A DNA stretch of 64,000 nucleotides from Actinomycetes bacterium. GTDB lineage: Bacteria; Actinomycetota; Coriobacteriia; WRKU01; WQUG01. The notes below the pieces were generated by a model. The model worked only from the letters and a program-made list of their open reading frames with translations, had not been told where the DNA came from and ran no database searches. The position numbers and the translations under genes were made by a program. This document shows, piece after piece, positions 1,973-50,649 of the stretch (the first letter of the stretch is position 1; every line of letters begins with the position of its first letter). The stretch is taken from NCBI GenBank assembly GCA_031272275.1, contig JAISUC010000012.1, positions 2,052-66,051 of the forward strand, read 5' to 3'.

Positions 1973-2049
1973 CCGCCCGCGGCAAACCATGCGGGCAGGC
2001 GGCATCACCTCGCGAACGTCATTGCGAAGCGGCGTAGCCGCCGCAGAGC
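1973..2049 (+). repeat. REP-like composite element, family 2 copy (CCCGCGGCAAACC ... CATCACCTCGCGAACGTCATTGCGAAG + GC hairpin)
   Basis: Near-identical to the units at 31324-31433 and 50551-50595. Sits directly 3' of tRNA-Ser. Confidence 0.5.
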
Positions 2050-2108
2050 CATCCGAGACGGAGCGCTTTTGCGTTTTGTGCGCATCCCGCGCCACAAAAC
2101 GGCGCCGT

Positions 2109-2264
2109 CTAGTACACGGCATTGAGGCCGGGGATCTCTATCGCGGCCAGCTTGTCGGCGGTGTACGGCTTGCCTGCGGGAATCCCCGCCTTTTCCATGA
2201 TACGGTAGAGCACGCGGTTAGTAATACCGTAATCTGCACATATAGATTTGAGGGTGGTTGCCAT
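2109..2264 (-). CDS. Small (51 aa) putative helix-turn-helix DNA-binding protein (excisionase/AlpA-like?)
   Basis: MATTLKSICADYGITNRVLYRIMEKAGIPAGK... has an HTH-like pattern. It is below the 60-aa ORF cutoff. Next to the tRNA at the edge of the island. Weak RBS. Confidence 0.3.
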   Translation of the reverse strand: MATTLKSICADYGITNRVLYRIMEKAGIPAGKPYTADKLAAIEIPGLNAVY

Positions 2265-2360
2265 TTCTCGAAAAAGTGCTTATTTTCGCATTTCCCGCAT
2301 TATATATAGTGAGTGTAAAGTGGCCGAGGTACATTTCGCGCGCAATTTTTACTCCCCCCC

Positions 2361-2808
2361 CTATGGTTTCAACCGCGAAAACATCCAGCGCGCGGCTGCG
2401 CGTTGCGCGGGCGTACCGTGAATCATTTTCTTAGCGGCCTCGAGCGTCGGCTGCGTCGGTTCCTTTTCGCGCGGTTTACCCGCACGCTTGCGTAGCTTTC
2501 CCGTGAACACGGGCTCCTCGAGCGGCTTGCTGTTCGCGGTTCGGTAGTAGGATTGCAGCACGCCGTCCATCCACGGCGCTTTCAGGATATGCGCACGCAC
2601 GCCCGCTTGGTCTAGTTTGAAATCAACCTTTGGCAATGTAATCCCTGTTTCTGTTTGGAAACAGCCTATTGAGATTCGTTTGGAATCTGCGCTCTATGGC
2701 GCCATCGGGGTCGTCTAGCCGCTCCACCTTGCGCACTCCGATATTGCGACCGTCCCAACGGCTTTCGGTAAATGGTTCACGTATACTTTCGTTCGGTTTG
2801 CTATACAT
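2361..2808 (-). pseudogene. Two overlapping small ORFs (61 aa and 91 aa) in different frames, possibly one frameshifted hypothetical gene
   Basis: ORFs 2623-2808 and 2361-2636 overlap by 14 nt on the same strand. No recognisable family. Confidence 0.25.
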
Positions 2809-47987: not shown

Positions 47988-48859
47988 CCGATAAACGGGT
48001 GCTGATAGTTGCAAACGAACGCGACGACGCCGTGGCGGCGGCGGTGTGTGCCATTCGCGCGCATTTCGGGGATTCGCTGCAGATAATTAACGGCACGACC
48101 CGACAGGCCGACGCGGCAGCCGACGCACCCGCAGTCGGGGACGCCGCCCTCTGTGACCTGGTGCTGGCGCTGGGAGGCGATGGCACCATTTTGCGCGCCG
48201 CCCGCCGGATGCTGGCTGACGACATTGCGTCTCCTTTGCTGGGCATCAAATTCGGCCGTCTGGGCTTTCTGTCCGGGGCACCGGCCGCAGAACTGCTGCC
48301 CGCACTGGATGCGGCGCTGGCAGGGACTGCCACCATCGAGGAACGTACGGTGCTGGCCATAGAGGTCCGCGACGCCACGGGCACGCTGCGTGCGCGCCAC
48401 GCCGCCCTGAACGAGGCCTTTCTGGGGCGCGCCGACCTGCCCGGTCCGGTCACCACCGCACTGGCGATAAACGATCACGACATCTACACCCAGACCGGCG
48501 ACGGCGTGATCGTGGCGACCGCGACCGGCTCGACCGCCTATGCCCTGGCTGCCGGAGGACCGGTCGTTGCGTCCGGCTATGCCGGGATGGTTGTGGTGCC
48601 CGTGGCATCCCACACGCTGGTCCAGCGCGCGATTGTCACCGCACCCGACGATAGCGTGACCCTGCGCCTGCCCGATGCGCTGCGTGCGCACGCCGCACTG
48701 GTCATCGACGGGGCAGAAACGCTGCGCTTTGCCGCGCCTGCGACCGATACGATTCACATCCGACGCGACCCCGCCCGCAGTATCCGTCTGGTCAAGACCT
48801 CATCTCGCCTGTTTTTCGACACGCTGGCCCGCGAGTTTTTCGGCAGCCGCGGTGATTGA
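47984..48859 (+). CDS. nadK: NAD kinase
   Basis: GGDGTILRAARR and NEAFLGR motifs. ATGA overlap with tlyA. Confidence 0.9.
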   Translation: MTDKRVLIVANERDDAVAAAVCAIRAHFGDSLQIINGTTRQADAAADAPAVGDAALCDLVLALGGDGTILRAARRMLADDIASPLLGIKFGRLGFLSGAPAAELLPALDAALAGTATIEERTVLAIEVRDATGTLRARHAALNEAFLGRADLPGPVTTALAINDHDIYTQTGDGVIVATATGSTAYALAAGGPVVASGYAGMVVVPVASHTLVQRAIVTAPDDSVTLRLPDALRAHAALVIDGAETLRFAAPATDTIHIRRDPARSIRLVKTSSRLFFDTLAREFFGSRGD

Positions 48860-48881
48860 GGACTGAAACGGGAACCCGACC

Positions 48882-50495
48882 GTGATACTCGAAACGCTAC
48901 ACGTCCGCGACCTGGCACTGATTGACGAGGCCTGGTTGGAGCTGGGACCGGGGCTGACCGCGCTCACGGGTGAAACGGGCGCGGGCAAAACTGTGCTCCT
49001 ATCCGCCTTGGCCCTGCTTTTGGGGGAGCGTGCCGACAGCTCCCTGGTGCGTGCGGGCGCCGATGCAGCCCGTGTCGAGGCTCAATTCAGCGATGGCATG
49101 GTGGCGGCGCGCCGTATTTCGGCCGACGGTCGCGGTCGCGCGACCCTCAATGGCGAGATGACAACCGTGGGCGCCTTGGCACAGGCGACCGGACCTTTGA
49201 TTGACCTGCACGGACAGCACGACCATCAGGCACTGATGCGTCCCGCCGCACACATTGAGTATCTGGATCGCTGGGCGGGGGCGGCCGTGTCGACTTTGCT
49301 CGCGGTCTATCGCGATGCACGTTTGACCTGGCAGGCGGCCGCACAGGCGGTTGCCGATATTCAGGCCGCGCGTGACCGCGATGCAGAGGATCTGGAAATG
49401 GGCCGTTTGGCACTGGCGGAAATCGAACGCATCGACCCGCTGCCGGGTGAAGACGATGATCTGCGCGCGCGCCTGCCCATGCTGGAGCATGCCGAGGAAC
49501 TGGCGGAGCATACCCGCACGGCGCTTGATGCCCTGCGCACCGAAGGTGGCGTGCTGGAATTATTATATACGGCCGACGCCGCGCTGGAACGCGCATCCGG
49601 CATGGACGAAGCCTTGGGCGAGCTCCGCGAGCGCATGGCAGAGGCACGCGGGGACCTGGAGGGCTTGGCCGACGCGCTGGCCGATTACCACACACATATC
49701 GAACACGACCCCCAGGCACTCACCGCTGCGTTCGAGCGCCTGGCGGAACTGGAGGGCTTGTGTAAGCGTTTCGGCCCCACGCTGAATGCCGTGCTTGAAC
49801 GCCGTGACAGCTTGCTGCGCACGGCGGATATGACTGAAAACGTCGAGGAACGCCTGGCACAGGCACGCGCCGCCGAACAGCAGGCACGCGACGAGCTGAC
49901 GGACGCGGCGGCCGGGTTGACGGCGGCACGACGTGCGGCGGCCGATTCTTTCATTGCGGCGCTGACGGATGCGGCGGCCGACCTGCAGCTAGGTCAGGTG
50001 ACCTTTACGGTTGACATCGCGGCGCGTCCGTTTGATGCCTGGACGGCAGACGGTGCCGACAAAGTCGAGATACTGTATGCGCCGTCCCCGCAAACGCCTG
50101 CCCGCCCGTTGGCGAAAATCGCGTCGGGTGGGGAAATCAGCCGCGTGATGCTGGCGCTGAAAAGCGTGTTCGGACAGGCGGACGGCAGACCGATTCTGGT
50201 TTTTGACGAGATCGACGCCGGTATCGGCGGGGCGGTGGCGACGGCCGTGGGCGCAAAGCTGAAGCAGCTGGCACAAACCCATCAGGTCATCGTGGTCACC
50301 CACTTGGCACAGGTGGCGGTCTATGCAGATGCGCAATTGCGCGTCAGCAAACAGGCTGGTGACGCCACCCGGACTATAGTCGAGCCGGTCACCGGGGCTG
50401 CGCGCACCGCAGAGATCGCCCGTATGCTCTCGGGGAGCACCGATACCGTGGCATGTGCACACGCCACAGAACTGCTCCGCAACGCCACGACCTGA
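48882..50495 (+). CDS. recN: DNA repair protein RecN
   Basis: N-terminal Walker A LTGETGAGKT. Long coiled coil. C-terminal signature and Walker B LVFDEIDAGIGG. GTG start. Confidence 0.95.
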   Translation: MILETLHVRDLALIDEAWLELGPGLTALTGETGAGKTVLLSALALLLGERADSSLVRAGADAARVEAQFSDGMVAARRISADGRGRATLNGEMTTVGALAQATGPLIDLHGQHDHQALMRPAAHIEYLDRWAGAAVSTLLAVYRDARLTWQAAAQAVADIQAARDRDAEDLEMGRLALAEIERIDPLPGEDDDLRARLPMLEHAEELAEHTRTALDALRTEGGVLELLYTADAALERASGMDEALGELRERMAEARGDLEGLADALADYHTHIEHDPQALTAAFERLAELEGLCKRFGPTLNAVLERRDSLLRTADMTENVEERLAQARAAEQQARDELTDAAAGLTAARRAAADSFIAALTDAAADLQLGQVTFTVDIAARPFDAWTADGADKVEILYAPSPQTPARPLAKIASGGEISRVMLALKSVFGQADGRPILVFDEIDAGIGGAVATAVGAKLKQLAQTHQVIVVTHLAQVAVYADAQLRVSKQAGDATRTIVEPVTGAARTAEIARMLSGSTDTVACAHATELLRNATT

Positions 50496-50550
50496 GCCCC
50501 GTCCTCGGCGACGCAAACCTACCACGGTCACCGGCGACGCAATCGCCCAC

Positions 50551-50649
50551 CGTCATTGCGAGCGGCGCGAAGCGCCGCGCGGCAATCCATCACGGCACGA
50601 CCGCTCGTGCCGTGTCGTTCAGCGGATGCGCTTTTGCGCATCTCCCACT
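50551..50649 (+). repeat. Family 2 REP-like unit (CGTCATTGCGAG-CGGCGCGAAGCGCCGCG-CGGCAATCCATCAC) followed by two perfect hairpins (CACGGCACGA/TCGTGCCGTG and GATGCGC-TTTT-GCGCATC); probable recN terminator region
   Basis: Read directly. Confidence 0.55.

Follow-up and report, generated by a model that had tools for sequence, protein, structure and literature searches.

The DNA analyzed here, which we call the window, is a 64-kb stretch of contig JAISUC010000012.1 from an actinobacterial metagenome-assembled genome (MAG) of the class Coriobacteriia. It carries a short noncoding repeat of about 40 nt at four loci, as six full units (U1 to U6) and one 3′ remnant (U0). U0 and U1 lie 3′ of a tRNA-Ser gene. 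U3 and U2 are on the minus strand, with a RhuM-family gene on one side and a truncated ADP-ribosyltransferase (ART)/VG15 gene on the other. U4 and U5 occupy the interval that runs from a divergent tRNA-Arg gene to a cpaB-like pilus gene, and U6 follows recN. The units form head-to-tail dimers at three of the four loci (U0-U1, U3-U2, and U4-U5), with spacers that are related to one another in alignment A2; U6 is solitary.

Each unit consists, in order, of an unpaired (C/T)GTC tag, a 5-bp stem termed P1 (ATTGC/GCAAT), an asymmetric purine loop, a variable hairpin, and a tail of CC(A) or AC. In the window copies, this layout reads as GTCATTGCGAG, a copy-specific GC-rich hairpin, CG(C/T)GGCAAT, and two to three more bases. 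We detected the units with two covariance models. The first, R1, included the window copies and was run with filters off. Because R1 contained those copies, a second model, R2, was built separately from 26 copies, all from other organisms. The units and the features that accompany them are as follows.

1973..1989, plus strand: U0, a 3′ remnant made up of the right hairpin arm and the 3′ box (CCGCCCGCGGCAAACCA); alignment A2 shows homology to the corresponding half of U4
1990..2016, plus strand: spacer of the U0-U1 tandem dimer, containing CATCACCTCGCGAA, which is common to the U4-U5 spacer
2017..2054, plus strand: U1, degenerate, with CGTC tag, GAA replacing GAG, 3′ box GCCAT, and tail CC
3742..3777, minus strand: U2, full unit with CGTC tag and tail CCA (R2, 49.4 bits, E = 2e-10)
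3804..3839, minus strand: U3, full unit with CGTC tag, tail TA, and a G-T wobble as the first stem pair; in tandem with U2
31322..31363, plus strand: U4, full unit with tag variant TGCC and tail AC, 130 nt upstream of the divergent tRNA-Arg
31364..31390, plus strand: spacer of the U4-U5 tandem dimer, containing CATCACCCCGCGAA
31391..31432, plus strand: U5, full unit with CGTC tag and tail AC
31433..31461, plus strand: accessory GC hairpin 3′ of U5, ATGCGGGGCGGGTG..CACCCGCCCCG, with first arm ATGCGGGGCGGGT
50551..50589, plus strand: U6, the best-preserved unit, with CGTC tag and tail CCA, 56 nt past the recN stop and upstream of ureA
50591..50642, plus strand: two more hairpins 3′ of U6, CACGGCACGA/TCGTGCCGTG and GATGCGC/GCGCATC

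R1 recovered exactly six units in the window, the lowest at 29.4 bits and the next match at 13.7 bits. R2, made of foreign copies only, recovered five of them at E ≤ 1e-4. The strongest R1 matches were U6 (50550-50590, plus strand, 52 bits; R2, 46.9 bits, E = 7.5e-10; predicted fold, −14.6 kcal/mol) and U2 (3740-3778, minus strand, 48.6 bits). These were followed by U3 (3800-3840, minus strand, 40.4 bits; R2, 26.8 bits, E = 1e-4), U4 (31321-31365, plus strand, 39.7 bits; R2, 27.3 bits; predicted fold, −14.9 kcal/mol, z = −2.9), and U5 (31390-31434, plus strand, 39.6 bits; R2, 29.7 bits). For both U3 and U5, the predicted fold comprised P1 and P2. U1 gave the weakest match (2016-2056, plus strand, 29.4 bits; R2, 13.6 bits, E = 0.24); it begins 91 nt past tRNA-Ser, and fold prediction gave its inner hairpin alone. 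The 5′ box GTCATTGCGAG, allowing at most one mismatch, occurs 7 times against 1.6 expected, a number reached by none of 100 shuffles, and the 3′ box CGCGGCAATMC occurs 15 times against 6.3 expected in the window.

The tag is CGTC in five of the six units and TGCC in U4. Read to three bases, the tails are CCA in U2 and U6, CCG in U1, ACA in U4 and U5, and TAT in U3. The outer stem is ATTGC/GCAAT in U2, U4, U5, and U6, with the G-T wobble of U3 at position 1 and the degenerate 3′ box of U1 as the departures. The first-pass annotation had described a composite element resembling repetitive extragenic palindromic (REP) sequences at four places, and all four carry it by inspection of the sequence. 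Its list of copies was incomplete, missing the unit at 3740-3778 (minus strand), 25 nt from a listed copy at 3803-3838. The copy it drew at 1973-2049 resolves into three parts, of which the first is U0 (1973-1989), the second a spacer, and the third the degenerate U1 (2017-2054). The inverted repeat at the outer ends, given there as ATTGCG...CGCAAT, is ATTGC/GCAAT and measures 5 bp.

Several similarities join the window copies to one another and point to local copying. U0-U1 and U4-U5 have spacer and boxes in common, and U1 and U2 have a hairpin in common (85% similar). A 25-mer at 2003-2027 recurs at 31377-31401 with 96% identity and corresponds to the spacer plus 5′ box of the local tandem dimer. 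The 17-mer CGCGAACGTCATTGCGA, noticed earlier as common to distant copies, is indeed so and forms part of this 25-mer; across genomes, however, its matches are mostly chance ones in coding sequence. CATCACC, which had been counted as part of the element, belongs to the local spacer and is not conserved in the family. The arm ATGCGGGGCGGGT was found 3′ of U3 and U5 only, and CGGATGCGC, which we checked as a possible extra common motif, is present at many unrelated places. U2 corresponds to codons 9 to 21 of a long open reading frame (ORF), 2801-3802 on the minus strand. As the Pfam domains of that ORF begin only at residue 48, beyond U2, its 5′ part is a spurious extension. At the recN locus, the block 50550-50645, comprising U6 and its two following hairpins, has a predicted fold of −36.9 kcal/mol (z = −5.6) and is a mosaic resembling the bacterial interspersed mosaic elements (BIMEs).

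The anatomy of the element was examined in foreign copies. Inside P1, a 5′-GA faces a 5′-G-N-R across the internal loop, followed by a G-C closing pair and a hairpin that is free in sequence and length provided its arms pair. The right side of the loop was GAA in 102, GTG in 56, and GCG in 39 of 217 copies (197 in all). Sheared G-A pairs in this purine loop are a plausible reading of the sequence, and a second G-A/A-G step is present in about a third of 152 unique foreign inserts. The inserts were chosen blind to pairing, and their nested positions 4 to 7 were paired in 78 to 87% of cases versus 42 to 47% when partners were shuffled; 0 of 500 shuffles reached the observed level. In alignment A1, the covariation score was 0.283 versus 0.077, and the signal was lost when partners were slid by one to three columns. 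P1 itself changes in step on both sides, to ATTCC/GGAAT, in 13 copies; few copies are mixed. Both stems thus show compensatory variation. The minimal form of the element is GTCATTGCGAGCGAAGCGAAGCAATCC.

Outside the stems, the two ends are also conserved. Among 274 foreign copies, the base preceding an invariant GTC was C (0.50) or T (0.42), and in the tail the first base was C (0.88), the second C (0.79) or T (0.20), and the third A (0.41). Sister variants of the same design with other outer stems occur on the same contigs, namely GTCATTCCGAG...GGAATC in 13 copies and GTCATTCTGAG, which follows the copy near position 11906 of contig L268. This suggests a larger superfamily joined by compensatory changes of the outer stem. 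Two known motifs with GA-rich loops were tried and dropped on sequence grounds: a kink-turn would need a register that disrupts the outer stem, and the sequence lacks the CUGA turn found in the hammerhead core.

We then considered how far the element extends beyond the window. In viral contigs, the pattern GTCATTGCGAG-N(8-30)-GCAATMC matched at least 120 loci. Genuine copies were found in no fewer than six phyla, the groups including Melainabacteria, Chloroflexi, Alpha- and Gammaproteobacteria, Bacteroidota, Planctomycetes, and Cyanobacteria, and plasmid copies were found in Novosphingobium, Methylobacterium, Methylosinus, Legionella, and two cyanobacteria. A metagenome scan for the local CGCGGCAATAC subtype gave 26 loci in unrelated organisms with GC contents from 33 to 67%. 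The same kind of scan with the local spacer-plus-box 22-mer gave no match. When genome contigs were scanned with CGCGAACGTCATTGCGA, about 12 to 14 of 116 among the matches listed were true elements, the rest being mostly chance matches in coding sequence, and none of the matches listed came from the window's own organism. BLAST against cultured-phage GenBank records yielded few matches and no annotation. Literature searches by the element sequence, and by peptides of the spurious ORFs across it, returned only primers or nothing. Taken together, the distribution is very wide and patchy, crossing phyla and including phage contigs.

These features led us to the superfamily of CGTC-tagged REPs described by Di Nocera, De Gregorio, and Rocco (2013, BMC Genomics 14:522; PMC3733652). 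According to that paper, such a repeat has an unpaired CGTC at one end, often replaced by TGTC or CCTC; the first two stem positions are almost invariably complementary A-T residues; and the tails are unpaired and fit CCA. The stem is 8 to 9 bp and the loop 4 to 5 nt, with variable loops in some families. The repeats lie mainly between co-directional and convergent genes, mostly as opposite-orientation dimers with spacers of 20 to 100 bp. Named members are Neisseria dRS3 (CGTC-1) and Rickettsia RPE-6 and RPE-4, Novosphingobium aromaticivorans is given as a carrier of CGTC-2, and the hosts are Proteobacteria (mainly alpha), Chlorobi, Bacteroidetes, Spirochaetes, and Thermotogae (PMC3733652).

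Our element agrees with this description in its CGTC/TGTC tag, in a stem that starts A-T then T-A, and in its unpaired CC(A) tail. It is likewise intergenic, mostly between co-directional or convergent genes, spans several phyla, and has no associated transposase; in most genomes its dimers are of opposite orientation, with about 20 nt between the partners. On the strength of the tag, stem start, tail, intergenic location, opposite-orientation dimers elsewhere, and lack of a linked transposase, we are fairly confident that the window repeats are local copies of a short structured noncoding repeat of the REP class, belonging to the CGTC-tagged superfamily and representing its outer-stem variant ATTGC/GCAAT. 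The earlier term "REP-like" was therefore apt. The host differs from those published, since our actinobacterial MAG falls outside the five phyla named in PMC3733652. What the window adds to an already described and very widespread repeat class is a new lineage of hosts and, locally, a head-to-tail form.

A number of points weigh against this explanation. Membership in the superfamily, whose families are CGTC-1 to CGTC-4, rests on the features described in PMC3733652 rather than on a match to their consensus sequences. The published stem of 8 to 9 bp with a 4- to 5-nt loop differs from the two-stem layout seen here, with 5 bp, a GA/GNR internal loop, and a variable hairpin of 2 to 10 bp; the minimal form GTCATTGCGAGCGAAGCGAAGCAATCC could be drawn as an imperfect 8- to 9-bp stem, and the authors note that families with bulges may have escaped detection (PMC3733652). 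Head-to-tail dimers, the form taken in the window, are called negligible in that paper. Compensatory change in a hairpin need not reflect selection, as templated correction inside a quasi-palindrome can also produce it. Mobility is putative, the closest relative available for a comparison of sites having a RecN only 59% identical. The orientation statistic relies on crude gene calls, which placed 93 of 249 copies within long ORFs that are often spurious. With these points taken into account, we still regard the explanation as a whole as likely.

To place the copies relative to genes we relied on crude gene calls. Lone copies between co-directional genes were evenly split, 19 co-oriented and 19 opposite. 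Among paired copies, 40 were tail-facing, 19 tandem, and 4 tag-facing, making the inverted pair the commonest form. Inverted dimers could be read directly at locus L213 and on plasmid pNL2 of Novosphingobium aromaticivorans. The pNL2 dimer runs CGTC-ATTGCGAG...GCAAT-CCAG, a spacer of about 20 nt, and CTGG-ATTGC...CTCGCAAT-GACG, and is flanked by two co-directional genes. One IMG/VR contig, L045, carries 17 units in tandem arrays that are all antisense to the genes of the contig. These arrays lie at 2668-2859, 4982-5106, 6899-6979, 11848-11968, and 12664-12784, with up to five units spaced about 40 nt apart.

An orientation that is random relative to genes argues against a strand-specific role in RNA. 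That the repeat is primarily a cis-acting structured RNA, acting in the sense of the transcript as a 3′-untranslated-region stabilizer, an attenuator, or a protein-binding hairpin, would account for the covariation of both stems and for a conserved purine loop (GA versus GNR) present on one strand only. Every window unit is co-oriented with at least one adjacent gene or tRNA, and U6 sits just 3′ of recN within its three-hairpin block. Against such a role stand the even split of lone copies, whole arrays antisense to genes, and the dominance of the inverted pair. U4 and U5 lie in a divergent promoter region. The genes that flank copies have unrelated functions. The nearest relatives by RecN were mostly Coriobacteriia MAGs at no more than 59% identity, and four of their syntenic loci (NAD kinase plus recN; 76 kb in total; RecN 55 to 57% identical) contained no copy. 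No T-run was found 3′ of the full units, and no terminator-like site overlaps any of them in the window. Rfam searches of the window returned only tRNAs, a cobalamin riboswitch, and a 5_ureB_sRNA match, none of them a family matching the units, and a search over 31200-31560 gave nothing relevant at E ≤ 10. We consider a primary RNA role unlikely. The full units also lack the combination of a GC hairpin and a T-run that marks an intrinsic terminator. The sole terminator-like overlap is a site at 1973-1985 on the minus strand, over the U0 remnant.

The copies beside tRNA genes raise a different possibility, namely that the main role of the repeat is as a target for site-specific recombination or integration by phages, IS110-type elements, or integrases, which would explain positions at tRNA flanks and island borders. 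Members of dRS3 serve as integration sites of Neisseria filamentous prophages. U1 and U2, with their similar hairpins, stand tail to tail across 1.7 kb of DNA that carries a phage-gene remnant (the truncated ADP-ribosyltransferase/VG15 gene), and the DNA beside tRNA-Ser has a lower GC content and accessory genes. REPs are described as targets of insertion sequences (IS), and DNA can be inserted between dimer partners (PMC3733652). However, no integrase or IS gene is present in the window, and most copies elsewhere are flanked by ordinary metabolic genes, without any inserted DNA. The clustering at tRNA flanks that had been proposed applies to two of four loci only, which is not significant, and a third tRNA in the window has no copy. 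We find a main role of this kind improbable; as a secondary role, a recombination target is possible on circumstantial evidence and is compatible with our assignment to the CGTC-tagged repeats.

The segment next to tRNA-Ser, 2057-6515, is a lower-GC accessory stretch with all of its genes on the minus strand. Besides small ORFs, these are a RhuM-family gene, a DUF2779/Cas4-like gene, and the truncated ADP-ribosyltransferase gene, which is fused to a fragment of a VG15-like phage gene. A reading of this position as an att site was rejected because no direct repeat of the tRNA-Ser 3′ end was found in the window. An independent short-read assembly of the region (Logan contig L238, SRR14710912; window positions ~1 to 3711) stops about 30 nt before U2. 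A break there would be expected if the unit is multicopy in the genome, and repeats of the unit probably explain it.

If the units were classical REPs or REPINs (REP doublets forming hairpins), they would be mobilized by a REP-associated tyrosine transposase (RAYT); a gene for a RAYT, or an IS200-like gene, was the partner that the first-pass annotation had proposed. In being short, palindromic, and intergenic, in having an unpaired tetranucleotide at the 5′ end, and in forming inverted dimers elsewhere, the repeat does have the general REPIN architecture. REPIN/RAYT systems are lineage specific and vertically inherited, whereas this element is near-identical across phyla and in phage contigs. 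Its tag is (C/T)GTC and not GTAG. Pfam searches of about 49 ORFs across the window found no Y1_Tnp (Y1/RAYT), IS110, integrase, or other transposase family. Clustering of the proteins in 120 viral loci revealed no recurrent neighbor, the largest clusters being phage structural genes or spurious high-GC ORFs. CGTC REPs are described as having no association with RAYT or other transposase genes, and it is stated that CGTC units flank no RAYT gene (PMC3733652). Papers found from after 2013 name no enzyme for CGTC repeats. Mobilization by a RAYT is, in our judgment, very improbable.

Last, that the units are miniature inverted-repeat transposable elements (MITEs), deletion derivatives of an insertion sequence that move by terminal inverted repeats, as the earlier label "MITE-like" implied, is hardly tenable: they are small, noncoding, repeated, and foldable, but measure only about 40 nt, have no long terminal inverted repeats and no detectable target-site duplication (no excess of 3- to 5-nt direct repeats across 150 lone copies), have no cognate IS with matching ends in any locus seen, and vary freely in their inner sequence, unlike MITE copies.

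Returning to the CGTC-tagged repeat, we hypothesized a way in which it could persist. The unit would be a nonautonomous selfish or commensal element that is recognized as a folded single strand, probably of DNA. The asymmetric loop and the 5′ tetranucleotide would mark the strand used, and a putative trans-acting enzyme, not encoded beside the unit, would copy or move it. The resulting copies could form stable hairpins both in intergenic DNA and in transcripts that cross them. Secondary roles might follow, as buffers at mRNA 3′ ends or as points of DNA insertion or rearrangement; candidate examples of the latter are the truncated phage gene abutting U2/U3, the DNA between U1 and U2, and the short-read contig end near 3711. 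We favor recognition of one strand in trans because a one-strand purine loop, a kept tetranucleotide, a free distal hairpin, and a patchy distribution across phyla and phages occur together. What the data show directly is how the units are built, that their stems vary in a compensatory way, that the element is spread very widely but patchily, and that it has neither a transposase linked to it nor a preferred orientation relative to genes. From there we infer that it passes through single-stranded DNA, that an enzyme acts on it in trans, and that the copies have secondary effects. As a whole, we put the mechanism forward tentatively, as one that could well be wrong.

By analogy, recognition of one DNA strand as it occurs at IS200/IS605 ends, RAYT substrates, and attC sites would fit best. 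GTAG REPs, REPINs, and BIMEs of E. coli and Pseudomonas are likewise short extragenic palindromes with an unpaired 5′ tetranucleotide. They occur as singletons, dimers, and mosaic clusters with other hairpins, and are plausibly processed as single-stranded DNA hairpins; they differ from our element in that the tag here is YGTC, the window holds no RAYT, and conservation runs across phyla rather than within a lineage. Integron attC sites share short conserved end boxes that pair together, a variable central hairpin, and unpaired bases that make the strands nonequivalent. In contrast to attC sites, our element has no RYYYAAC/GTTRRRY core sites (its boxes are GTCATTGCGAG and GCAATCC), is much shorter, and occurs with no cassette array and no integrase in the window, so we take the likeness as an analogy of design only. 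IS200/IS605 subterminal hairpins resemble it as imperfect hairpins with an adjacent unpaired tetranucleotide read on one strand, but here there is no TnpA/TnpB gene, no pair of left and right ends, and no cargo.

A more specific form of this idea is that the ATTGC-type CGTC repeat is not just decaying junk but the substrate of a widely distributed, putative system that recognizes single-stranded nucleic acid, in which the GA/GNR loop and YGTC would be the signals for recognition and strand choice and the distal hairpin would supply only folding energy. We hold this to be doubtful. If true, such a system would explain near-identical boxes across genomes of 33 to 67% GC, at least seven phyla, and phage contigs, and its enzyme could be found by phylogenetic profiling.

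For annotation, these data imply that the repeats should not be called as genes, riboswitches, or terminators, and they account for the spurious 5′ extension of the ART-remnant ORF. CGTC-type REPs now reach an uncultured actinobacterial lineage and phage contigs, and the structure of the family is now defined as two stems with a conserved purine loop between them and with variation that is clearly compensatory. The R2 model would permit a genome census, which is needed to seek the copying enzyme. The wider interest lies in the structural model and the copying mechanism, which would concern the superfamily at large and not this window in particular.

Other repeats and structured elements were seen in the window. 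A separate 15-mer, GGGACGYACTCCCCC, is present in 14 copies against 0.01 expected, with unrelated flanks, and is presumably the "first repeat family" of the first-pass annotation. Its copies are at 4145, 4957, 7433, 10749, 12765 (minus strand), 14482, 17408, 22403 (minus strand), 25118 (minus strand), 39745 (minus strand), 45268, 50808, 53615 (minus strand), and 62135. Many are apparently between called ORFs, and at least three are inside long ORFs. The copy at 10749 is immediately upstream of the cobalamin riboswitch (10804-11024, plus strand, 115 bits). The 5_ureB_sRNA match (51870-52167, minus strand, 149.9 bits) is antisense within the urease alpha-subunit gene and most likely reflects coding-sequence conservation with the Helicobacter ureB region behind that Rfam family rather than a small RNA. 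Between an M43-like peptidase ORF and metA (567-731), three copies of a 22- to 27-nt sequence (TTAGACCGCGCTGAAC...) occur, direct at 567 and 604 and inverted at 705, and they appear unrelated to the REP units. Finally, a 28-nt inverted repeat at 15712-15811, 89% complementary with 44 nt between its arms and with G7 and C7 runs, sits inside a long double ABC-ATPase ORF (13712-16264).

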